A DNA stretch of 14,060 bases, from assembly GCA_041288095.1 (NCBI GenBank), contig JBGGMJ010000064.1:1-14060 (forward strand). The letters run 5' to 3'. Shown piece after piece: positions 2,874-13,471 of the stretch; within the stretch, counting starts at the first letter, position 1, and each line of letters begins with the position of its first letter. The translations under genes and the position numbers were made by a program. This DNA is from Myxococcota bacterium (GTDB lineage Bacteria; Myxococcota; XYA12-FULL-58-9; JALHOP01). The notes beneath the pieces were generated by a model. That model was given only the letters and a program-made list of their open reading frames with translations. It had not been told where the DNA came from and ran no database searches.

Positions 2874-4559
2874 TTAGGCTACTGCCCGCGCCAGCATCTC
2901 CTTGGCGGCGGCACGCGTCGCCTTTGAATCGGGAGAGCCGTCGATCATGCGGGCAATCTCCGCGGCACGCGCCGTACCCTTGAGCTTCTCGAGGGTCGCG
3001 ACCGTGCGTTCGCCTTGCGACTCCTTGCGCACGCAAATGTGCACGTCGGCTCGCGCCGCAATCGGCGCCAGGTGCGTGATGGTGATCGCCTGGTGCCCTC
3101 GCGCCACCGCCTGGATCTTCTTGCCGATGGCATCCGCCGCGCGCCCGCCGAGACCGGTGTCGACCTCGTCGAAGACGTAGAGCGAAACCAGGTCGCGACT
3201 CGCGAGCACGGTCTTCACCCCTAGCATCAAGCGCGACAGCTCGCCGCCGCTCGCGATCTTCGCCAGCGGCCGCAGCGGCTCGCCGCGGTTTGGCCCCCAG
3301 GCGAACTCGACGTCATCGGCGCCACTCGCGGTGAGCCCTTCACCGCCAGCGACCGGCCGCACGGACACCTGTGTGGCGAGCACCGCCCCCGCCAGATCCA
3401 TCTCGGCGATCTCCGCGCACACGCGCTGATCGAACTGCGCCGCCGCCTTGCGCCTCGCCTTGCTCAAGTCGGCCGCGAGCCGCTCCGCGGCGACCAGCTT
3501 TTCGGCCGCGAGCGCCGTAAGCTCGGCGACGCGCGCATCGCTGTTGTCGAGCGACAGAATCTCGCGCTCTAGATCCGCGCGACGCGCCAGCACGTCGGCC
3601 AAGGAACCGCCGTGCTTGCGCGCCAGCCGCCGCAGCTCGTTCAATCGGTCTTCGACTTCCGAGAGCCGCTCGGGGTCGTCGCTCACCCGATCGAGGTAAC
3701 GCTGCAATGTGCGCGCGGCGTCCTGCAGATCACGCTGCGCGCCCGCCAGGGCCTCGCGCACTGGCGCGAGCTCCTCGTCGATGCGCGCCAGCGACTCGAG
3801 CTCGGCCGCGGCCTTACCCAGCTTGTCGAACGCCGAGCCGTCCTCACCATAGAGCAGCGCCTCCGCCAGCATCGCCCCCGACTTGAGCTTCTGCGCATGG
3901 GCGAGCTTCTTGTGCTCCACCTCGAGCTCCTCGTCTTCGCCGGGCCGTGGCGCCAGCCGCTCGATCTCATCGAGCTGAAACTTCACGAAGTCCGCCCGCT
4001 GCAGGTCCCGATCGCTACGCGACTGCAACCCATGGAGCTCCGCCGCGGCCGCCCGCCATGCCTCGAACTGCTCACGATACGCCTCACGCTTGTCGATGAG
4101 CTGACCAAAGTCATCGAGGATGGCCAGATGGTTCTCGACGAACAGCAGGCTCTGCTGCTCATGCTGCCCGGAGATGTCGACCAAGCCGCGAACGATCTCC
4201 GCCAGGGTCGCAAGCGTCGACAGACGGCCGTTGATGATCACCTTCGCCCGACCCTTCACCCCGATGACCCGCCGCACCAGCAACGTCGCCGGATCGTCAC
4301 CGACCAGCTCGCGCTGCTCGAGTCGCGCCTGCACAATCGGATGAGAGCTAATATCGAAGAGCGCCTCGACCTCTGCGGCATCGCAGCCGTTTCTGACGAC
4401 GTCGCCGCTGGCCCTTCCGCCCAGGGCCAAGATCAGCGCGTCGACCAAGATCGACTTTCCCGCGCCTGTTTCACCGGTCACCACGGTGAACCCGGACCCG
4501 AGCTCCAAGTCGACCTCGTCGATGATGGCAAAGTCCCGAATCTTCAGATGCAGCAGCAT
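2874..4559 (-). CDS. recN: DNA repair protein RecN (SMC-like ATPase)
   Basis: Walker A TGETGAGKS, Q-loop GQHEQQ, long coiled coil, signature ASGGELSR, Walker B FDEVDTG, ITHLAPIAA; 561 aa. Confidence 0.97.
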   Translation of the reverse strand: MLLHLKIRDFAIIDEVDLELGSGFTVVTGETGAGKSILVDALILALGGRASGDVVRNGCDAAEVEALFDISSHPIVQARLEQRELVGDDPATLLVRRVIGVKGRAKVIINGRLSTLATLAEIVRGLVDISGQHEQQSLLFVENHLAILDDFGQLIDKREAYREQFEAWRAAAAELHGLQSRSDRDLQRADFVKFQLDEIERLAPRPGEDEELEVEHKKLAHAQKLKSGAMLAEALLYGEDGSAFDKLGKAAAELESLARIDEELAPVREALAGAQRDLQDAARTLQRYLDRVSDDPERLSEVEDRLNELRRLARKHGGSLADVLARRADLEREILSLDNSDARVAELTALAAEKLVAAERLAADLSKARRKAAAQFDQRVCAEIAEMDLAGAVLATQVSVRPVAGGEGLTASGADDVEFAWGPNRGEPLRPLAKIASGGELSRLMLGVKTVLASRDLVSLYVFDEVDTGLGGRAADAIGKKIQAVARGHQAITITHLAPIAARADVHICVRKESQGERTVATLEKLKGTARAAEIARMIDGSPDSKATRAAAKEMLARAVA

Positions 4560-4582
4560 TCAGCTTCTCCGGTGTCGCGGCA

Positions 4583-4614
4583 CTGAACAGTTGTTCCGCT
4601 GATCATCCGTATAG
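4583..4614 (-). promoter_or_regulatory. Two abutting putative LexA (SOS) boxes upstream of recN
   Basis: The minus strand reads CTATAC-ggat-GATCAG (4614-4599) directly followed by CGGAAC-aact-GTTCAG (4598-4583). The second has a GAAC-N4-GTTC palindromic core. Both resemble the Myxococcus LexA consensus as I recall it (CTRHAM-N4-GTTCAG). Confidence 0.7.
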
Positions 4615-4630
4615 ATGAATGCTCCGACAA
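4602..4630 (-). promoter_or_regulatory. Putative sigma70 promoter of recN
   Basis: TTGTCG (4630-4625), 17-nt spacer, GATGAT (4607-4602). The -10 and the predicted start site fall inside the SOS-like boxes. Confidence 0.45.
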
Positions 4631-4707
4631 CTTCCAGCGGAGATGTCCCCTCCAGCGCTCGTCGCCATCCCTGCTAAGTAGGCAGTGAGTGCGATCACAG
4701 AGAAGTG

Positions 4708-4734
4708 GCAACCTCTGTCACCCCATGCCGATAA
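4708..4734 (+). promoter_or_regulatory. Sigma28/FliA-type promoter candidate
   Basis: Exact -10 consensus GCCGATAA at 4727-4734, 13 nt before ATG 4748. The -35 position 15 nt upstream reads GCAA (consensus TAAA, 2/4). Confidence 0.5.
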
Positions 4735-4747
4735 CCGTCGAACCAGA

Positions 4748-6445
4748 ATGACGATTCGGCCTTCCGACTATCACGCTTCATCATTGGCTCTGCTCCGAGC
4801 CAGGGGATCGTTCCGCACGCAGTTGCTGGACAGTGTCCGGCTGAGCAACGGACCGGCGCTCGCCAAGGACGCCTTCGCAGACGTCAAGGTCGACAACAAA
4901 CGCCACGCGTACAACATCCTCAAGTACGCCAAAGAGTTCTTCGCCGACGATGCCCCGACGACGACCCTGGCGGATCTCAGAGCCAGCAGCCGCCAGGTGC
5001 CCGTCAGCTCATTGGCTCCGACCCGAGCCATCCTCGACCTGCTCACTGCTCCGGTGGAAGCGAGTCCGACCACCAAGCAAGGCCAGGCGCGCAAGACGCT
5101 CCGCGAAGAGCTCGGCATCAGCTCGCCACTCTGCACGCTCGCCTTGAACCTCATGCTCCTCAGCCGTGGAGCGCAGTGCCTCGCGGGTTGCCACGTCATC
5201 TACAACGGCCACGCCACCGGCGCGACGATGCCTCTCTTCCCGATGCTCCAGGCCCTCGGCCTCTCCTCGGGTGGCTATCGCGCCTCGAGCTACAGCGGCG
5301 ATAAGGGTGTGCGCCCCCTCTTCAACATGGTGCTCTCGCAGTTGATGGGCACACCCGCGCGCGACTTCAATCTCACCGCCGACCGCCCGGAAAACGTCGT
5401 GGCCGAGCTCATGACCCCGGGTATCGTCGTCGTCGTCAACGCCGGCCCCATGCTCAACGGCATGGACCTCCCTCCCGAGGTCCTGCAGCGCATCAAGCGC
5501 GGTGACATCCGCTTCGTCTTGCACAACTCCGCCGATCACAGCGCCTTCGATCAGCTGCGGGCGAAGTATCCAGACGTGTTCGCCCAAGCACTCTGCATCG
5601 ATGCCGCCAACAGCGTGCCCAAGCAGATGGAGCTCGACCTCATCGGTGCTCAGATCGTCGCGCATGGCGACGACGCTTCGCGCCGTCACAATGGCGCGCC
5701 GCTCAAGGATTCGGTTTCGGTAATCATGGGACTTGGCAAGATGGGCCGTTCGATCGCTCAGCATCTGCTCGGGTCCAACCTCAAGCCCGAGAACCTCGTC
5801 ATCGTCGACACCAACCCGACGCCGGAGGCCATCGCGTGGGCGGCCGAGCGCGGCATCACCATTCATTCCGAGCTCCCGGAGACGATCAGCGGCGATCGCC
5901 GTCTCGCCGAGCAACCGCATGGCGTCGTCTTCGTCGCGACGAATAGTCCGAGCGGTCTCGACGCCAGCCACCTCCCCAACCTTCCGAGTCGCACCGCGGT
6001 CATCAACACCAACTCCCAGGGTCAAGGCGTCGACGTCGACGGCATCTACGACGTCTACCAGAACATCCAAGAGGCGGATCACGACTACCGCGCCTGGGGC
6101 CTCCGCGATGGCGACCATCGCGGCTTTTCCGACATGGTGTGCGTCCGTGACCAAGCGTGCAAAACCCCGTCGCCGAAGGCTCTCACCCTCGTCAACCTTC
6201 GCCACGACCCCGAGACCGGCCGCGTTTCGCTCTATTCCCCCAACCTGAGCGACACGACGGGACAGGACGATCTGCCCACGACGCCCATGATCGTCATCGG
6301 CGTATGCGCGGCCTCCGACCCCGACTTGAAGCCACGCCACGACGGCCGCCCACACCCGTTCCCGCTCACTCCCGGCAACTTACTGAAGAACGCCGCCCTG
6401 CCGGCGCTGCCTTATTACCCTTCGGAAGAGAAAGCCGCGGGCTGA
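4748..6445 (+). CDS. Hypothetical protein with divergent S-adenosylhomocysteine hydrolase-like fold and NAD(P)-binding Rossmann domain
   Basis: Strong GC3 codon bias. Rossmann motif VIMGLGKMGRSIA followed by LVIVDTNP. Colinear by-eye similarity to AHCY motifs (see findings). The ORF opens at GTG 4685, but ATG 4748 is preferred because it lies downstream of GCCGATAA. Confidence 0.75.
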   Translation: MTIRPSDYHASSLALLRARGSFRTQLLDSVRLSNGPALAKDAFADVKVDNKRHAYNILKYAKEFFADDAPTTTLADLRASSRQVPVSSLAPTRAILDLLTAPVEASPTTKQGQARKTLREELGISSPLCTLALNLMLLSRGAQCLAGCHVIYNGHATGATMPLFPMLQALGLSSGGYRASSYSGDKGVRPLFNMVLSQLMGTPARDFNLTADRPENVVAELMTPGIVVVVNAGPMLNGMDLPPEVLQRIKRGDIRFVLHNSADHSAFDQLRAKYPDVFAQALCIDAANSVPKQMELDLIGAQIVAHGDDASRRHNGAPLKDSVSVIMGLGKMGRSIAQHLLGSNLKPENLVIVDTNPTPEAIAWAAERGITIHSELPETISGDRRLAEQPHGVVFVATNSPSGLDASHLPNLPSRTAVINTNSQGQGVDVDGIYDVYQNIQEADHDYRAWGLRDGDHRGFSDMVCVRDQACKTPSPKALTLVNLRHDPETGRVSLYSPNLSDTTGQDDLPTTPMIVIGVCAASDPDLKPRHDGRPHPFPLTPGNLLKNAALPALPYYPSEEKAAG

Positions 6446-6451
6446 CCGCCG

Positions 6452-8536
6452 TTAGTCACCGGGCGTCAGCCGGGCCCCGAGGGCGTTCGGCGACTCCGCG
6501 GGCAGCTCGCACACTCCGCGATGGCAGACGTAGCCGACGGCTTGCTGCTTGAATTCCGTGCGCCCTTCCAGGAGCGCGAGCTTCGCCGGCGCTAGGTCCG
6601 GTCCCGCGATGACGCGCACGCCCAGCGGCAAGAACCGCCCGCGCAAGAAATCCAGCATCGGCCCGCGTTCGACCCCGGCGACGACGATCTGCAGCGGCTC
6701 ACCGTGGAACCAATCGAGCGCCGCGAGCATCGCGGGCACCGCGAAAGCGGCCCGTCGGAGCTGGAACGCAAAAGCGGACAGGAGAGCCTTGGCTCTCACG
6801 TGATAGCTCTCGTCGTCGGTGAGCTGATGCAAGCGCAAGAGGTTGCGGCAACCCACCGAGTTCCCGGAGGGCTCGGCGCCGTCGTAGTCCGGCTTGTCCC
6901 GCCGGATGAGCACCTCGGCATCCGCGGCACTCAAGAAGTAACCTCCGCCTTCGGCGTCCCAGAACTGCTGGTCGAGCTGGCCCTGTAGACCGCGCGCGAA
7001 ATCGAGCCATTCGACCTCGCCGGTCGCCTCGAAGAGCTCGAGCAGTCCCTGGATGACGAACGTGTAGTCATCGAGCACCGCCGCGTGGCGCGCCTCACCG
7101 GCTCGGAACGTGCGGCGCAAGCGTCCGTGAACCTGCATATCGTCGCGAATGAAACGCGCGGCCCCGCGAGCCGCGTCGAGATAACGCTCGTCGCCGAGCA
7201 CGAAGCCCGCGCGCGCGAAAGCGGACATCGCGAGCCCGTTCCAGGCGGCGATGATCTTGTCGTCGAGACGTGGCGCGGGCCGCGCCTTGCGAGCTTCGTA
7301 AAGCTTGGCGTTCGCGAGGTCGACGTCGCCGCTCCCCTTCAGACGCAGCACCGAGCGTCCCTCGAAGTTGCCCTCTGGAGTTACGCCGTAGATGTCCCCG
7401 ACGCGGCGGGCCTCGACTGCGCCGAGCACGTCCTCCAGCTCCCGCGGCGTCCAGGTGAAGAACCACCCTTCCTCGAGATGGCCGGCGGGCGTCACGCTAT
7501 CGGCGTCGGTCGCCGAGTAGAACCCACCGCGTGCGTCGCGCATCTCGCGCAGCAGATAGTCGAGAGTGCGGCGCGCGATTTGGGCGAAGTCCTCCCGGCC
7601 GAAAGCCTGCGCGGCGGTGACGTAGGTCGTCGCCAGCTGAGCGTTGTCGTAGAGCATCTTCTCGAAATGAGGGACCAGCCACATCGAGTCGACGGAATAG
7701 CGGTGAAACCCCCCGCCGACCTGGTCGAACATGCCGCCGTTGGCCATGCCCTCCAGCGTCCGCGTGACCACGGTGGCCAGGTCGCCGTCGCCCGAGCGCG
7801 CCCATATTTGCAGCAGCGCATCGAGCACCACCGGCCGCGGGAACTTCGGCGCTCCCTCGAAACCACCCGAAGCCGCGTCGAAGCGCGCTTTTGCCTCGTC
7901 CGCGAAAGAAGACAGCAACGACTCGCGCGGAAAGTCGAACGCCGGCGGCGGCTCGGGCTGCAAATAGCGCGTCAACGTCGCCGCAGTCTTGTCGAGCTCG
8001 GCGGGAGCTTCTTGCTTGCGCCGCTCGACCTCGCGCAAGAGCGACAGGAAGCCGACCTGCGCGCCGCGATCACCGTCGCGCGCCGGAAAATAAGTGCCGG
8101 CGAAGATGGGCTGCCGCTCGGCCGTGGTGAAAACGGTCATCGGCCAGCCGCCTTGCCCGCTGATAAGCTGCACGGCGCTCATGTACACGGCGTCGACATC
8201 GGGCCGCTCCTCGCGATCGACCTTCACCGCCACGTAGTGTTGGTTGATGAACGCGGCGATCTCCTCGTCCTCGAAGGACTCGTGCTCCATCACGTGGCAC
8301 CAATGACAGGTCGAGTAGCCGATGCTCACGAGCACGAGCTTGTTCTCGGCTTTGGCCCGCGCGAACGCCTCGTCGCCCCAGGGGTACCAGTTCACCGGGT
8401 TGTGGGCGTGCTGCAGCAGGTACGGGCTGGTCTCGAGGACGAGGCGGTTGACGAAGCGCTTGCCGGGCGCGCGGCCCTCGAGTGTGGCCTGCAAAGCCTC
8501 GTCGACATTGGCGATACCAGGAAGCTTCGGATCCAT
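6452..8536 (-). CDS. Thioredoxin-domain protein, DUF255/YyaL/SSP411 family (thioredoxin-like + alpha/alpha-barrel)
   Basis: NRL...[88 protein letters not shown]-terminal YVC..GVC.LP. Confidence 0.95.
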
Positions 8537-8576
8537 GCGGAGCCACCGTGTCAGGAGGTGTGGGGCCTACGCTAGT

Positions 8577-8592
8577 GCAAGCTGTAGCTTGC
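8577..8592. promoter_or_regulatory. Perfect inverted repeat in divergent intergenic region, candidate operator
   Basis: GCAAGCT-GT-AGCTTGC between the starts at 8536 (-) and 8625 (+). Confidence 0.45.
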
Positions 8593-8624
8593 GACTGTCA
8601 GTTCCGAATGGCACGCTTTTCGAC

Positions 8625-9224
8625 GTGACCAATCGCATCACCCCGCAGGCAGCCTATGCGGCGGCCATCGCCCCCGGTTCCGAGCAACGCCATCGCATCT
8701 CCGACACCGAGTTCGGACGCATCGCCGAAGCGTTCAATCGCCGCAGCCATGCCGTCGACTTCATGGGCATCAAGGCTTTCGACCAGACACAGGCCGCGCA
8801 AACCACTTTCTTGCGATCGATCGCCGACGAGAACCCGGCACTCGCCCAGTCCCTCCTGAGAGGCGAAAACTGGCAGCAGTACTTGGGCCGGCGCATCGGC
8901 CACGACGTGCGGCCCGAGAGCGCCGAGCAGGCCCGTGCCGAGCTTCGTACGCGCCTCGGAGGCAGCAGCGACGCGATGCCGCCGCGGGTACCCGACGCTC
9001 TGCGCCAGCGCGTCGAGCGATTCGGCGCCCAGGTCCGCGCTTCCACCAACGAGGTGCTGAACCCCACCGACGGCAAGTACTTCGAGCTCTTCCGCGGCAA
9101 CCTCGAGGCCGCCTACCGCTCCCCCGAGGGACGAGCGCTGCTCGAAGAAGTTGGCAAGGTGCCCGGCGTCACCAACGCGCGCCAAACGATGTCCGAGATC
9201 ATCGGCCGCAGCCGCGACCGCTGA
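8625..9224 (+). CDS. Hypothetical protein (~199 aa, predicted mostly helical)
   Basis: GC3-biased frame filling the gap divergent from the DUF255 gene. The ORF-track start at 8322 overlaps that gene, so GTG 8625 (MTNRITPQAAY) is preferred. No family recognised. Confidence 0.75.
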   Translation: MTNRITPQAAYAAAIAPGSEQRHRISDTEFGRIAEAFNRRSHAVDFMGIKAFDQTQAAQTTFLRSIADENPALAQSLLRGENWQQYLGRRIGHDVRPESAEQARAELRTRLGGSSDAMPPRVPDALRQRVERFGAQVRASTNEVLNPTDGKYFELFRGNLEAAYRSPEGRALLEEVGKVPGVTNARQTMSEIIGRSRDR

Positions 9225-9297
9225 CAGACAGTCCGCCATCGCGGGTACCTCGGGGGCGAGTTGCCGCGGTCGCCACGGAGTGGCAGGCTGTGCCTAC

Positions 9298-9750
9298 ATG
9301 ACGGAGAGCGCCGCCCCCGCGCCCAACATCGGCTCGCACCCGCTCACCGGGAAGCTCGTCGCCGCCTTGCGACAGGCGGGCAGCGGTCTTGGGTTTGCGA
9401 GCAGCGACATCGAGCAGTTCCGCAAGGCCGGAAGTGAGCTCGATCCCGAAGCTTTGCTGGTCTGGATCCGGGACCTCAGCACCCTCGCCATCACGCTGCG
9501 AAACGACATCATGGCGAACGGGGCGGCGACGCAGATCGAGCAGGGTCTGATCGAGCCGCTCTGCCGCGTCCTCGAGACCCATGTGCGCGCCGAAGGCATC
9601 GGTTCGACCCGTGGCAATGCGGTCGAGCAGCTCGTTCAAGCCGAGCGTCGCAAGCTGGAGAAGCCGACCGGCGTGGCCGCCGGAATCGCCCCCAAGGGTA
9701 CCAACCCGGTTGGCGCGTACATTCGCGGCCGACGAAAAAAAGACCAATAA
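9298..9750 (+). CDS. Hypothetical protein, paralogue A (150 aa)
   Basis: ATG at 9298, GC3 bias, and ungapped similarity to the downstream ORF (41/78 identical by hand count), which supports both being real genes. Confidence 0.85.
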   Translation: MTESAAPAPNIGSHPLTGKLVAALRQAGSGLGFASSDIEQFRKAGSELDPEALLVWIRDLSTLAITLRNDIMANGAATQIEQGLIEPLCRVLETHVRAEGIGSTRGNAVEQLVQAERRKLEKPTGVAAGIAPKGTNPVGAYIRGRRKKDQ

Positions 9751-9809
9751 ACGTCAGGCTGTCAGCACCTGCAATGAACCACTAGAGCCCACATTACACC
9801 CTACCGGGT

Positions 9810-10106
9810 ATGTTGGGCATGCGCGGCGTTATCCACGACGGAAGAGTCCTCACGAGCCAGCTCGTCGGCGCCCTGCGGCGCGGCGACCGGGGGCTCGCCT
9901 TCGCCGAGACCGACATCGAACGCTTCCGCAACGTCGGGTCGAGCCTCTTGCCCGACACGTTGACGACCTGGGTGCGCGAGCTCGGTGTCCTTGCGGTCAC
10001 CTTGCGCGACCACGTGCATGCGACCCAAGCAGCCAAGCAGCTCGAGCGCGAGCTCATCGACCCGCTGTGCGCGGTGCTCGATCGCGCTTCGCGGGCCCGC
10101 GCCTAG
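9810..10106 (+). CDS. Hypothetical protein, paralogue B (95-98 aa)
   Basis: Paralogue of 9298..9750 lacking its C-terminal tail. The start is ATG 9810 or 9819. Its stop overlaps the convergent gene's stop in CTAG (10103-10106). Confidence 0.85.
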   Translation: MLGMRGVIHDGRVLTSQLVGALRRGDRGLAFAETDIERFRNVGSSLLPDTLTTWVRELGVLAVTLRDHVHATQAAKQLERELIDPLCAVLDRASRARA

Positions 10107-10831
10107 AACGTGTAGCCGAGCACGACGGCGGTCTCCTGAGCGCCGCTGCCGCTGGTGTCGATGAGCGACGCGATGAGGCTCGCGGAGACGTGCGTGCTCG
10201 ACGCCGAGCCGAACGGATAGATCCAGACGTCGAAGCCCACGCGCAGAGGACGCGACAGGCTTGCTCCCTGATTGGACTCCTCGCGGCCGAGCCCCAACGC
10301 CTCGGCACGCTTGTGGCGGTAAAGCGACGGCGAGAACCAGGCGTACGGCAGCACCGACACGTACGGACCGAAAGCGAGCTCCGCCATGAAGCCGACGCCG
10401 GAGGACAACTGAGTCTGGGCCGCCGATGACGTGTCGCGATCACCACTGCCGCTATAACGGACGGCGCGGAAGTTCGCGAAGACAGTGAGCGCGTGGGGCC
10501 GTCCCCAGCCACCGCCGGACAGCAGCTCTGCGTAAAGACGAGCCTGTCCGCCATAGAGGATGCCGCCAAACTCGCGGTCTCGATCGACGATCTCGACGCT
10601 GGCGCGGCCGATGAGCGTGGAGAGCTGCGCCCCGAAGCCGGCTGCTCGATCGATCTGCAGAATGTATTGCAACCCCTGACCCTCGAGGGTCAGCGGCACC
10701 GCCCCGGCGCTCTCATCACGCACGTAGACGAGCTGCGGCGTGTGGTGCAGCTCATCGGTATCGATATGGACCCGCGTAAGCGGCGCCGAATACGACGCCA
10801 CCAGGACCGCGGTCACCAGGTAGGCAATCAT
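10103..10831 (-). CDS. Putative outer-membrane beta-barrel protein
   Basis: Hydrophobic N-terminus (MIAYLVTAVLVAS), many alternating aromatic/Gly strands (LRVGFDVWIY, THVSASLIAS), and a C-terminal beta-signal VVLGYTF. Confidence 0.7.
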   Translation of the reverse strand: MIAYLVTAVLVASYSAPLTRVHIDTDELHHTPQLVYVRDESAGAVPLTLEGQGLQYILQIDRAAGFGAQLSTLIGRASVEIVDRDREFGGILYGGQARLYAELLSGGGWGRPHALTVFANFRAVRYSGSGDRDTSSAAQTQLSSGVGFMAELAFGPYVSVLPYAWFSPSLYRHKRAEALGLGREESNQGASLSRPLRVGFDVWIYPFGSASSTHVSASLIASLIDTSGSGAQETAVVLGYTF

Positions 10832-10960
10832 TTCGAGCCAACAAATAGCACGCGCAACGCGGGCGACGACATCACGGGATAAGACGGGAGAGCACGTTCA
10901 TCCCGCGTGAAGCCAGTTCGCAGCCGCGACGCGGAAACGAACGAAGCTACAACAATACTG

Positions 10961-11018
10961 GCGTTCAGGTTCCGCGTTGCCTCTGCGGAACCTGAACACA
11001 GCGCCGCCCCTGCGGCGC
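10961..11018 (-). terminator. Double hairpin directly after the lon stop codon (terminator or mRNA 3' stabiliser)
   Basis: GCGCCGC/GCGGCGC stem (11001-11018) and a perfect 13-bp stem GTTCAGGTTCCGC (10963-10975) / GCGGAACCTGAAC (10985-10997). On the minus strand it is followed by T-rich but not poly-U sequence. Confidence 0.6.
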
Positions 11019-11020
11019 GA

Positions 11021-13471
11021 TCAATTCGGCGCTGTCGGAGGCACCGACGGCACCACCGGATTGGCTTTCGCCAATGCAATCGGTGACTGCTCGAGCGCGG
11101 CTTCCAGCACTTCGTCCATGCGGTGCGCGAAGACGAACTCGAGGCCAAGGAGATTCTGCTTCGGAATCTCGACCAAGTCCTTCTTGTTGCGTTCCGGCAT
11201 GATGATGCGCTTCACGCCCGCGCGCTTGGCCGCCAGGACCTTCTCCTTGATGCCACCGACCGGTAGCACGTTGCCGCGCAACGTGATCTCGCCGGTCATC
11301 GCCACGTCACTGCGCACCTTGATGCCGGTGAGCAACGATACGAGCGCGGTCAGCATCGTGACGCCCGCCGAGGGACCATCCTTGGGGATGCCGCCCGCGG
11401 GAACGTGGACGTGCAGGTCGAAGTTCTTCAGCGAGTCTTCGCTGATGCCGAGGCGCTGTGCTTGCGAGCGCACGAACGACATGGCCGCCTGACCCGACTC
11501 CTTCATGACGTCGCCGAGCTGACCGGTGAGCGTCATGGCGCCCTTGCCGGAGAACTTGGTGGCTTCGATGAAGAGAATGTCGCCGCCGACCGAGGTCCAC
11601 GCGAGACCCGTCGCGACACCCGTAAGCTCGGTGCGCTCCGCCATCTCGTTGATGAACTTCGGCGGACCCAGGATGGTCTCGAGGTCTTCCTTGGTGACGA
11701 GCCGCTTCTCGGTCTTGCCATCGGCGAAGTCGACCGCGACGGCACGGCAAACCGAAGCGATCTCGCGCTTCAGGTTACGCACACCGGCTTCGCGCGTGTA
11801 CGACGCGATCAGCTCCATCAAGGCTTCCTGCGGAATGTCCGCGCGGTCGCCGTTGAGACCGTGGTCTTCCAGGGCCTTCGGCACCAAGTGCCGCATGGCG
11901 ATCTCGAGCTTCTCTTCCTGGGTGTAACCAGGGATCTCGAGGATCTCGAGGCGGTCCTTCAAGGCCGGCGGAATCGGCTCGAGCTGATTCGCGGTGGCGA
12001 TGAAGAAGCACTTCGAGAGATCGAAGGCGACGTCGATGTAATGATCGGCAAAGGTGTGGTTCTGATCGGGGTCCAAGACCTCGAGCAACGCCGCCGCTGG
12101 ATCACCACGGAAGTCGTGGGCCAGCTTGTCGACCTCGTCGAGGACGAAGACGGGATTGTTGGTCGCCGACTTCTTCATGCCCTGGATGATGCGACCCGGG
12201 AGCGCGCCGACGTATGTACGGCGGTGACCACGGATCTCCGCTTCGTCACGCACGCCGCCCATGGCGACGCGGATGAACTTGCGGCCCATCGACTTGGCGA
12301 TCGACTGACCGAGCGACGTCTTGCCGACGCCGGGCGGACCGACGAAGCACAAGATCGGACCCTTCATGTCGCTCTTGAGCTTGCGAACCGCCAGGTACTC
12401 GATGATGCGCTTCTTGGGCTTCTCGAGGCCGTAGTGATCAGCGTCGAGGATCTCGCGCACCTCTTTGAGATCGATCTTGTCGACCGAGGCCTTCGCCCAC
12501 GGCAGGTCGCACAGCCACTCGACGTATGTACGAGCGACCGTGTACTCGGCCTGCGACGGCGACATGTTGCGCAGACGGCGCAGCTCCTTGCGGGCGGCCT
12601 TCTCGGCTTCGTCCGGGAGACCAGCGTCGTTGACGCGAGCTTCGAGCTCCGCCAGATCGTCGTCGCTGTCGTCGCCTTCACCGAGCTCGTCTTTGATCGC
12701 CTTGAGCTGTTGACGCAGGTAGTACTCGCGCTGCGTCTTCGACATCTCGCCTTTGACCTGCGAGCTGATCTTGTTCGACAGCTTGAGGACCTCGAGCTGA
12801 CGGGAGAGCAGCTCGAGCACGCGACGCATGCGCGACACCAGCTCGACCGTCTCGAGGACGCCCTGCTTCTCGTCGACCGTGGCCTCCACGTTCGAGGCGA
12901 TGAGGTCGGCGAGGACACCGGCGTCGTCGACGCGCTCCAGGAGCTCGGCCGCGGACGGTGGCAGCTCGGGGATGAGCCGCAACACTTCGCGCGCCGTCTT
13001 CTTGAGCGACATGGTCAAGGCTTCGACCTCGACCTGGTTCGTCGTCATGTCCTCGACGGCGCTGATGCGCGCGCGCAGGTACGGCAACGACTGGGTGTAC
13101 TCGCTCAGGCGAACGCGCGAGAGGCCTTGAACGACGACGCTGAAGTTGTCCTTCGAGGCCTTGACCAGCTTCACGAGGCGGGCGGCGCAGCCCATCCCGT
13201 AGAGATCGGCGGGAACGGGGTCGTCGACATCGGGGTCTCGCTGCGCGACCACGGCGACCAACCCGTTTTCCTTGATGCTCTCTTCGACGAGTCGCACGGT
13301 CTTCGGCCGTCCGATGCCCAGGGGCACGATCGAACCAGGGAAGAGCACGGTGTTGCGCAGCGTCAGTACCGGCAGCTCGTCGGGGATGACGATCATGCTG
13401 TCACCTTCACCAGGCTTGGTAAGGGCGTGCTCGATACCGATGTTTTCTAGGGGCTTCTTTTTGTCGGCCAT
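11021..13471 (-). CDS. lon: ATP-dependent Lon protease (LonD/BsgA-like)
   Basis: LON N-domain (LPVLTLRNTVLFPG), Walker A GPPGVGKTS, Walker B VLDEVDK, GHRRTYVGALPG, catalytic DGPSAG (Ser) and GGIKEK (Lys); 816 aa. Confidence 0.98.
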   Translation of the reverse strand: MADKKKPLENIGIEHALTKPGEGDSMIVIPDELPVLTLRNTVLFPGSIVPLGIGRPKTVRLVEESIKENGLVAVVAQRDPDVDDPVPADLYGMGCAARLVKLVKASKDNFSVVVQGLSRVRLSEYTQSLPYLRARISAVEDMTTNQVEVEALTMSLKKTAREVLRLIPELPPSAAELLERVDDAGVLADLIASNVEATVDEKQGVLETVELVSRMRRVLELLSRQLEVLKLSNKISSQVKGEMSKTQREYYLRQQLKAIKDELGEGDDSDDDLAELEARVNDAGLPDEAEKAARKELRRLRNMSPSQAEYTVARTYVEWLCDLPWAKASVDKIDLKEVREILDADHYGLEKPKKRIIEYLAVRKLKSDMKGPILCFVGPPGVGKTSLGQSIAKSMGRKFIRVAMGGVRDEAEIRGHRRTYVGALPGRIIQGMKKSATNNPVFVLDEVDKLAHDFRGDPAAALLEVLDPDQNHTFADHYIDVAFDLSKCFFIATANQLEPIPPALKDRLEILEIPGYTQEEKLEIAMRHLVPKALEDHGLNGDRADIPQEALMELIASYTREAGVRNLKREIASVCRAVAVDFADGKTEKRLVTKEDLETILGPPKFINEMAERTELTGVATGLAWTSVGGDILFIEATKFSGKGAMTLTGQLGDVMKESGQAAMSFVRSQAQRLGISEDSLKNFDLHVHVPAGGIPKDGPSAGVTMLTALVSLLTGIKVRSDVAMTGEITLRGNVLPVGGIKEKVLAAKRAGVKRIIMPERNKKDLVEIPKQNLLGLEFVFAHRMDEVLEAALEQSPIALAKANPVVPSVPPTAPN

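Follow-up and report, generated by a model that had tools for sequence, protein, structure and literature searches.

A rare myxococcotal protein family within the S-adenosylhomocysteine hydrolase superfamily, with divergent active-site residues and a Crp-type genetic partner

Introduction

The question raised by contig C64 of a Myxococcota genome (G000) is whether a protein that no family model recognized is an S-adenosylhomocysteine hydrolase (SAHH) and, if it is not the housekeeping enzyme, what the SAHH fold serves in it. SAHH is among the most conserved enzymes, and proteins with its fold are commonly taken for housekeeping enzymes of the methyl cycle. The entire contig (14,060 bases of a 5.85-Mb genome in 212 contigs) was analysed and is referred to as the window. 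The gene under study, referred to as the target, occupies 4748..6445 on the + strand, including the stop codon, and encodes 565 amino acids counted from the ATG. A preliminary description had assigned its product to the SAHH fold with a rewired active site, and had proposed a pseudoenzyme or a nicotinamide adenine dinucleotide (NAD)-dependent enzyme for a different substrate. Other genomes, contigs and loci are designated with G, C and L numbers where they have to be told apart.

The reading frame is a genuine gene, and purifying selection acts on it. The GC contents of its codon positions (0.64/0.47/0.81) showed the coding-frame pattern seen in the neighbouring genes, and comparison with the 78% identical orthologue in G002 gave a nonsynonymous substitution rate (dN) of 0.14 and a synonymous rate (dS) of 0.93 (dN/dS approximately 0.15). 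A GTG at 4685 is a possible upstream start, without support from the orthologues, which begin at the same methionine as the target.

Relationship to S-adenosylhomocysteine hydrolase

Both domains of the target were confirmed to have the SAHH fold, and the similarity was colinear and far beyond chance. No Pfam, NCBIfam or PADLOC family matched the protein above cut-off. The Pfam signals were limited to sub-threshold Rossmann matches (TrkA_N and F420_oxidored, residues 325–374), the models PF05221, PF00670 and NCBIfam AhcY gave no match at E ≤ 0.01, and a phmmer search of the Protein Data Bank (PDB) returned only a 40-residue match to the dinucleotide loop. Profile comparisons reached further. 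A 28-sequence family alignment was aligned by hhalign with 13 Myxococcota AhcY proteins at a probability of 96.5–98.1% (P 7e-10 to 6e-13), with family residues 119–554 spanning AhcY residues 39–474, and with four short-type AhcY proteins at a probability of 96.9% (P 1.7e-10). When a hidden Markov model (HMM) of 34 family members was searched against the PDB, the first 37 of the 60 matches listed were adenosylhomocysteinases or AHCYL proteins (best E 1.5e-9), and the matches fell in separate stretches, one in the catalytic domain and one in the NAD domain.

Structure comparisons gave the same result. For a first AlphaFold model (predicted local distance difference test score, pLDDT, 72), the Foldseek matches listed were SAHH only (E approximately 1e-8, approximately 460–520 alignment columns), and the top 50 entries after VIA-align was run over that list were all SAHH (Z 16.2–19.6). 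Another model, derived from 34 sequences, reached a pLDDT of 89.6 and a predicted template modelling score (pTM) of 0.89. Compared with 48,161 chains without Foldseek preselection, it matched SAHH best (6gbn_A, Z 21.1, 366 aligned residues, root-mean-square deviation 3.7), followed by dipicolinate synthase subunit A (Z 13.7) and D-2-hydroxyacid dehydrogenases (Z 10–13). The independent ESM Atlas model of the target likewise found SAHH (template modelling score 0.54–0.59 by query). The colinearity of the core with AHCY, read by eye in the preliminary description, was thus borne out by hhalign, the PDB search with the family HMM, Foldseek and VIA-align, and a generic Rossmann match was not what Foldseek, VIA-align or the unbiased chain scan returned: all three gave SAHH. 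Membership of the D-isomer 2-hydroxyacid dehydrogenases (PF00389/PF02826) was not indicated either, with no Pfam match for the target and a Z of 10–13 versus 21.1 for SAHH.

The chain was divided into five parts. An N-terminal helical extension without counterpart in canonical SAHH (residues 1–118; 4748..5101, + strand) was modelled with helices at residues 51–64, 74–79, 92–100 and 110–121. The second half of this N-terminal region (approximately residues 90–140) was conserved in the family, with G112 in 26 of 28 sequences, and the number of residues preceding the first core strand ranged from 75 to 308 among 28 members. The first part of the substrate-binding, catalytic-type domain (residues 119–310; 5102..5677, + strand) was delimited by hhalign against AhcY, an HMMER match to AHCYL1 (3mtg, 31–145) and invariant columns, and contained the motifs Y152-x-G-H155-x-T157, S183-G184, N231, G252-x-x-R255-F-x-x-H259-N260-x-x-D263 and S289-x-x-K292-x-x-E295. 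It was followed by the NAD-binding Rossmann domain (approximately residues 311–470; 5678..6157, + strand), recognized by hhalign, HMMER, invariant columns and the sub-threshold Pfam matches, with the motifs G328-x-G330-x-x-G333, D354, A397-T398-N399 and S423-x-G425-x-G427. According to hhalign, the chain then returned to the catalytic-type domain (approximately residues 471–540; 6158..6367, + strand), in which N499 and L500 were invariant in 34 sequences. The C-terminal tail (residues 541–565; 6368..6442, + strand) was modelled with low confidence (pLDDT <50 for residues 552–565), was conserved only among close orthologues and lay outside the hhalign alignments.

The target shares with SAHH (PF05221 + PF00670; 6gbn, 7r3a, 1li4) a two-domain fold with an inserted NAD domain and a colinear order of motifs. 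It differs from SAHH in an identity of just 11–16%, in the missing Pfam match and in the additional helical N-terminal region of approximately 118 residues. AHCYL1 and AHCYL2 (IRBIT; 3mtg, 3gvp) likewise have extra N-terminal sequence joined to an SAHH fold and include the best PDB sequence match. AHCYL1/IRBIT, a non-catalytic animal paralogue of SAHH, is an earlier example of this fold in signalling and is found in eukaryotes only. In contrast to the target family, IRBIT has a near-canonical SAHH sequence, and the N-terminal regions, helical in the target, are unrelated in kind. Dipicolinate synthase subunit A (2rir) and the D-2-hydroxyacid dehydrogenases, including CtBP, also have two Rossmann-like domains and a cleft (Z 10–13.7 over approximately 260–280 residues), but their scores were clearly lower than those of SAHH, they gave no sequence-profile signal and they lack the SAHH-type order of motifs.

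Active-site residues

The roles of SAHH residues were taken from sections 4.4, 5.1, 5.3 and 5.4 of a review (PMC13406329). Residue equivalences were drawn from alignments and secondary structure. As described in those sections, SAHH has the substrate fingerprint HxTxQ(E), which is HxExK in inosine-type enzymes, and its ribose ligands are a His after β-1, an Asp after β-4, Glu/Thr after β-5 and then a Lys and an Asp. It has a Gly-His-Phe molecular gate, an NAD site made up of GxGxxG, an acidic residue ending β-2 and an Asn to the nicotinamide amide, and a C-terminal tail with a Lys/Tyr pair clamping the NAD of the neighbour (PMC13406329).

Compared with the residue roles in those sections, the NAD-binding side of the target was retained and the substrate side largely replaced. 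The NAD signature was kept in GxGxxG at residues 328–333, in D354 (aligned with a SAHH Glu) and in N499, NAD binding is predicted, and the T398-N399 loop and L500 were also kept. At the fingerprint position the target reads H155-A-T157-G-A159, with the His and Thr kept and the Gln/Glu changed to Ala. Among the ribose ligands, H155 and the Lys that contacts the 3'-hydroxyl (K292) were kept, the Asp after β-4 was replaced by N231, and an invariant Glu (E295) lies one residue away from the position of the ribose Asp. The SAHH Glu/Thr-Thr-Thr loop after β-5 appears in the model to be occupied by H259-N260-x-x-D263, preceded by R255. The gate sequence NIGHFD of SAHH was aligned with NTNSQGQG, so that the gate His corresponds to S423, a residue with at least 90% conservation across family members. 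The His of the SAHH motif GHP corresponds to Q506 in the hhalign alignment.

In terms of motifs, the target thus keeps the first-loop His and Thr, the 3'-hydroxyl Lys, GxGxxG, the acid of β-2, the T-N loop and the nicotinamide Asn-Leu of SAHH. It departs from SAHH in having HxTxA, an Asn after β-4, H-N-x-x-D with an invariant Arg in place of EETTT, S-x-G-x-G in place of GHF and a Gln in place of the GHP His. Additionally, the target has a 10-residue insert before Asn-Leu, its gene stands outside a methyl-cycle context, and the C-terminal Lys/Tyr clamp was unrecognisable in its tail, a region of low model confidence beyond the hhalign alignments. Four of the seven defining SAHH features examined were lacking (the Pfam match, the complete fingerprint, the full set of ribose ligands and the gate), and the target should not be filed as AhcY.

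The preliminary description had listed ten motif pairs between the target and human AHCY, eight of which were reproduced by the alignments (LAGCHVIYNGHAT, ASSYS, VNAGP, CIDAANSVPK, VIMGLGKMG, VDTNP, VFVATNS and AVINTNS). The pairing of TLVNL (residues 480–484) with RLVNL did not hold. SAHH RLVNL aligns with SPNL (residues 497–500, with N499-L500), and TLVNL is the preceding strand, separated by the 10-residue insert. The tenth pair, IRFVLHNSAD, was left without placement by hhalign and is taken up below. The residues named as kept (His55, Lys186) and as lost (Asp130/131, His301) were recovered in the alignments as H155, K292, N231 and S423, and the NAD-binding signature was found as described there (GxGxxG at 328–333, D354 and N499). 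Of the human residue numbers, H301, K426 and Y430 come from the review, and the others follow the preliminary description or the usual AHCY numbering. The replacement of most residues that handle the nucleoside and homocysteine was likewise upheld by hhalign and the invariant columns, within the residue roles given in the review sections cited above.

Fourteen columns were invariant in 34 family sequences that were 17–78% identical to the target: H155, G252, R255, H259, N260, D263, K292, E295, G328, G330, G333, D462, N499 and L500. With the exception of D462 and G252, each corresponds by alignment or topology to a ribose- or NAD-binding position of SAHH as given in those sections (PMC13406329). 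Because these columns were invariant across 34 sequences, the family has not decayed and instead has a different set of polar residues in the cleft. The strict conservation of this set leans towards a working ligand site, as far as can be judged from sequence. Of the 63 positions shared by 75% or more of the 28 other members, the target kept 48.

Distribution of the family and paralogy

The target belongs to a new family within the SAHH superfamily, which is rare, occurs in Myxococcota and has a new genetic partner. Besides the target, five relatives were found among 5.8 billion proteins. When 1.84 billion cluster representatives were searched with a profile, 56 matched at E ≤ 1e-3, 35 of them at E ≤ 1e-10. 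Pfam was scanned for 48 of these 56 clusters, leaving out six short fragments and two clusters already in alignment A1. In the distant tail of these 48 matches, PF00670 was present in 11 and PF05221 in 3, and the cNMP_binding domain was absent from all 48. No fused or longer forms were found at E ≤ 1e-5 when longer proteins were searched with alignment A2, which is weak evidence. The family signature consists of Y-x-G-H, G-x-x-R-F-x-x-H-N-x-x-D, S-x-x-K-x-x-E, GxGxxG, S-x-G-x-G, D462 and N-L, and the target has all of these elements. No bacterial SAHH-like family of this type and no pairing of SAHH-like and Crp genes came up in a literature search, and the "SAHH-like" papers among the literature matches listed concern animal AHCYL/IRBIT.

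Among 401 genomes of the phylum, 24 had a family match at E ≤ 1e-10, and a full-length member was present in only 10. These carriers were all four genomes of the genus of G000, three genomes of lineage f9 and three of lineage f12. A canonical ahcY gene was found on contig C167 of the target's genome (PF05221, E 1e-142; the only PF05221 match genome-wide) and in all 31 phylum genomes sampled. The target is therefore not the housekeeping enzyme, as the preliminary description had concluded while suggesting a check for a separate ahcY.

A paralogue with 34% identity to the target is encoded on contig C188 of the same genome, where it comes immediately after a HutD gene (PF05962). The paralogue followed its upstream gene with a 10-nucleotide gap both in G000 (C188; L015 9141-11367) and in G002 (C11; L073 6868-9153). 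A metallophosphoesterase gene was located after the paralogue in G000. In a quick maximum-likelihood tree with a midpoint root only, the two copies of the genus formed one clade (Shimodaira–Hasegawa approximate likelihood ratio test value 98), sister to the clade that holds the Crp-adjacent members described below.

A distant SAHH-like module was also found in P0051 (1373 amino acids), where it is followed by an NB-ARC NTPase. This module kept S-x-x-K-x-x-E and lost H-N-x-x-D. Proteins of the phylum that seem comparable carry a nucleotide cyclase where P0051 has the SAHH-like module. Open frames of approximately 1,030–1,425 amino acids in which only the NAD-domain part matched the family profile were present in G011, G019, G044, G080, G083, G092, G135, G330, G348 and G361. 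At locus L017 (G015, contig C63; 1390-5265), a 1291-residue protein with the order adenylate/guanylate cyclase, AAA_16 and TPR was encoded 2.3 kb 5' of a family member without an adjacent Crp gene.

Association with a Crp-type regulator

In the three f12 genomes, the gene directly after the family gene encoded a protein with cNMP_binding and HTH_Crp_2 domains, with a 1-nucleotide gap or a 4-nucleotide overlap. An HMM of four such Crp-type proteins was searched against the family loci, with mostly 1.5 kb of flank examined. A Crp-type gene was present at 12 of the 30 distinct loci. In eight cases it lay directly downstream on the same strand, in two further downstream (0.7 and 1.6 kb) and in two divergently upstream, one of the latter matches being weak and partial. 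Since five of the genomes (6.9–11.6 Mb each) contained only 8–20 HTH_Crp_2 genes, adjacency by chance would be of the order of 1%. A second protein with a cNMP domain and without the helix-turn-helix domain recurred at five of the family loci.

The presence of the two genes was also correlated across the phylum. The close Crp subfamily (alignment A7, six sequences; E ≤ 1e-30) occurred in 10 of the 401 genomes, exactly those with a full-length family member, including five in which the family and Crp genes were not neighbours. Within f12, both genes were present in 3 of 20 genomes.

The target's genome encodes its Crp orthologue on contig C10 (48% identity, E 7e-63; the next-best Crp paralogue had an E of 3e-8). 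At this locus (L080 7378-9897), the Trp-type Crp gene (8503-9363, + strand) was convergent with a gene for a protein with only a cNMP domain (9355-9897, − strand). On the other side lay a divergent gene for a 354-residue protein without a Pfam match, and genes of glycogen or trehalose type (isoamylase-like, maltokinase-like) were nearby. In an alignment, the invariant P-W-S-G-T-G of the Crp subfamily stood opposite P-R-T-S-S-A of mycobacterial CRP. In canonical cNMP domains, the Arg at this position binds the cyclic phosphate, and the Trp in its place argues for a ligand other than cyclic AMP (cAMP) or cyclic GMP (cGMP). The recognition helix of the subfamily reads R-E-T-V-N-R, which we take to be of the CRP type.

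A candidate CRP-type operator was located 64 nucleotides 5' of the target ATG (4684..4699). This palindrome, aGTGA-N6-TCACa, has one mismatch to TGTGA-N6-TCACA, and sites with at most one mismatch occurred at a background of 0.02 per kb. At the same position, a site with one mismatch was present in the orthologue in G001 and one with two mismatches in G002. From its sequence and position, the palindrome may act as an operator, in keeping with the recognition helix of the Crp subfamily.

Predicted function

In the account that we prefer, and to which we give about an even chance, the target would hold NAD and oxidise a hydroxyl of a nucleoside-like substrate other than S-adenosylhomocysteine (SAH), and the substrate or product would be sensed by the cNMP-type domains of its partners. 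The protein would be a SAHH-fold NAD enzyme with an active site rebuilt for this substrate. The NAD site together with K292, E295 and H155 would be the machinery retained for oxidising a substrate hydroxyl beside the nicotinamide. The reader of adenine N6, the holders of the ribose 2'- and 5'-hydroxyls and the gate of the homocysteine channel would be the parts replaced. The family would have two partners, a Crp-type transcription factor that is non-canonical and dedicated to it and a stand-alone protein with a cNMP domain, and in the most likely logic the substrate or product of the enzyme would be the ligand of their cNMP-type domains. That the target binds NAD, is catalytic, acts on such a substrate and is tied to the regulator in this genome is predicted from the residues and gene arrangements described above.

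Several findings weigh against this account. The equivalence of H259/N260 with the SAHH Glu/Thr, drawn in the preliminary description by pairing IRFVLHNSAD with IRGISEETTTG, fits the modelled strand at residues 254–258 and helix at 261–273, but hhalign was of low confidence in this region. The clade of the target has V230-N231 instead of the family's D-K after β-4, and D508 of the target is an Arg in 25 of the 28 other members. No Crp gene adjoined the target or its paralogue in this genome and genus, as seen in the window, the three orthologous loci and the loci of the paralogue. With the lost D-K, D508 and the lost Crp adjacency, the target may have a function that differs from that of members next to a Crp gene. 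The co-occurrence of the two genes, if kinship is considered, rests on about three independent lineages (f1, f9 and f12). The palindrome was not found in one of the four orthologues (G003), no CRP-type palindrome with at most two mismatches was found upstream of any of the 11 other family or Crp genes scanned, and the palindrome may belong to another of the approximately eight Crp-family proteins of the genome. Finally, invariant residues in the cleft would also be expected of a ligand sensor.

Such a sensor is a tentative alternative and on the whole somewhat unlikely. In such a pseudoenzyme, the core would bind NAD(H) or a nucleoside-like ligand without turnover, and the family-specific helical module at the N terminus would relay the signal, for instance to the Crp-type regulator. 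The replacement of several catalytic or gate positions of SAHH is consistent with this, as are the variable length of the N-terminal extension (75 to 308 residues before the core), the translational coupling of the gene to a transcription factor at eight loci and the fusion of the distant relative P0051 to an NB-ARC signalling NTPase. The best PDB sequence match was to AHCYL1 (3mtg, E 1.5e-9), just marginally above true SAHHs. However, invariance extends to the Lys, to the acid beside it and to the His used by SAHH on ribose, and a new invariant cluster of R, H, N and D occupies the position of the catalytic Glu/Thr loop, a pattern more typical of catalysis.

The preferred account of an enzyme acting on a nucleoside-like substrate can also be taken further, into a scheme that we regard as unlikely as a whole. 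The SAHH-like protein might make or destroy an undescribed nucleoside-derived signal by NAD-dependent sugar chemistry, the Trp-type Crp and the cNMP-domain protein might read this signal, the three together might make up a new myxococcotal circuit for small-molecule signalling, and the enzyme module might also be connected to STAND NTPases, acting there as an output domain.

Unlikely too is an SAHH-derived NAD(P)-dependent oxidoreductase for a non-nucleoside substrate such as a hydroxy acid or an amino acid, in which case the Crp regulator would control a catabolic enzyme. The same two-domain layout is found in D-2-hydroxyacid dehydrogenases, dipicolinate synthase subunit A and alanine dehydrogenase (Z 10–13.7), the adenine-N6 reader as described in the review sections cited above is lost (HxTxA instead of HxTxQ/E), and the neighbours of the target in ESM features were clusters named "NAD(P)-dependent oxidoreductase". 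SAHH, however, scored approximately 7 Z units above those folds, the first non-SAHH family in the PDB search with the HMM appeared at rank 38, and the His-x-Thr of the base/ribose loop and the ribose 3'-hydroxyl Lys were kept. A second, divergent SAH hydrolase is highly improbable: it would agree with the fold and the retained NAD motif, but PF05221 and PF00670 were unmatched, replacements affect the gate (GHF), the fingerprint Gln/Glu and the ribose-binding positions (Asp and Glu/Thr) given in those sections, and the genome has a canonical ahcY.

The target would represent a bacterial branch of the superfamily in which the NAD-dependent core is kept and the substrate pocket rebuilt, and no family model or paper describing this family was found. 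The strict co-occurrence and frequent translational coupling with a Crp regulator that would be unable to bind cAMP in the canonical way make it testable whether one metabolite links both. If so, the SAHH superfamily would gain a new chemistry and the Crp/cNMP-domain family a new class of ligand. If not, the target still marks an SAHH-derived family hidden behind automated calls of "hypothetical protein".

Genomic neighbourhood

All recognisable genes of the window besides the target were housekeeping genes, according to Pfam and NCBIfam scans. They encode an M23 peptidase (144-1127, − strand), FabI (1890-2804, + strand), RecN (2874-4559, − strand; TIGR00634, E 4e-159), a DUF255 thioredoxin-like protein (6452-8536, − strand) and Lon (11021-13471, − strand). 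The target stands alone, transcribed away from the divergent recN and towards the convergent DUF255 gene. An operon partner within the window was rejected on the basis of these orientations.

The order recN, target, DUF255 gene and lon was conserved in all three related loci of other genomes. Given this conserved order and the housekeeping flanks, the target is not a cargo gene of an island. A defence or toxin function was also considered and rejected, with no PADLOC match for the target, nearby PADLOC matches only to the generic ABC-ATPase of RecN and housekeeping genes on both sides. The ideas of a nucleotide "sponge" and of toxicity raised in the preliminary description found no support in the PADLOC scan of the target, nor in its surroundings, which showed no mobile or defence context.

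A non-coding block just 5' of the recN start (4582-4640) was strongly conserved, with the sequence ACTGAACAnnTGTTC...CTGATCAT..GTATAG...CCGACAA. It was present in all five aligned genomes, including those in which the SAHH-like protein was only 37–51% identical, and in the window it contained GAAC-N4-GTTC. The block is probably the recN promoter with an SOS (LexA-type) operator. A further conserved element, CCGATAAC, was located at 4727-4734, approximately 15–20 nucleotides 5' of the target ATG. It was conserved in the window, G002 and G001 (four of five aligned rows, with G002 counted twice, as L002 and L006) and was unaligned in G003.

Between the DUF255 gene and lon (8537-11020), open reading frames with coding-like GC content at the third codon position (GC3) were found at 8322-9224, 9151-9750 and 9810-10106 on the + strand and at 10103-10831 on the − strand. 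The frames 8322-9224, 9151-9750 and 10103-10831 had no Pfam or NCBIfam match, and 10103-10831, the only one scanned with PADLOC, had no match there. Between the M23 peptidase gene and fabI, an open reading frame of 251 amino acids (1106-1861, − strand) also had a coding-like GC3 of 0.81.

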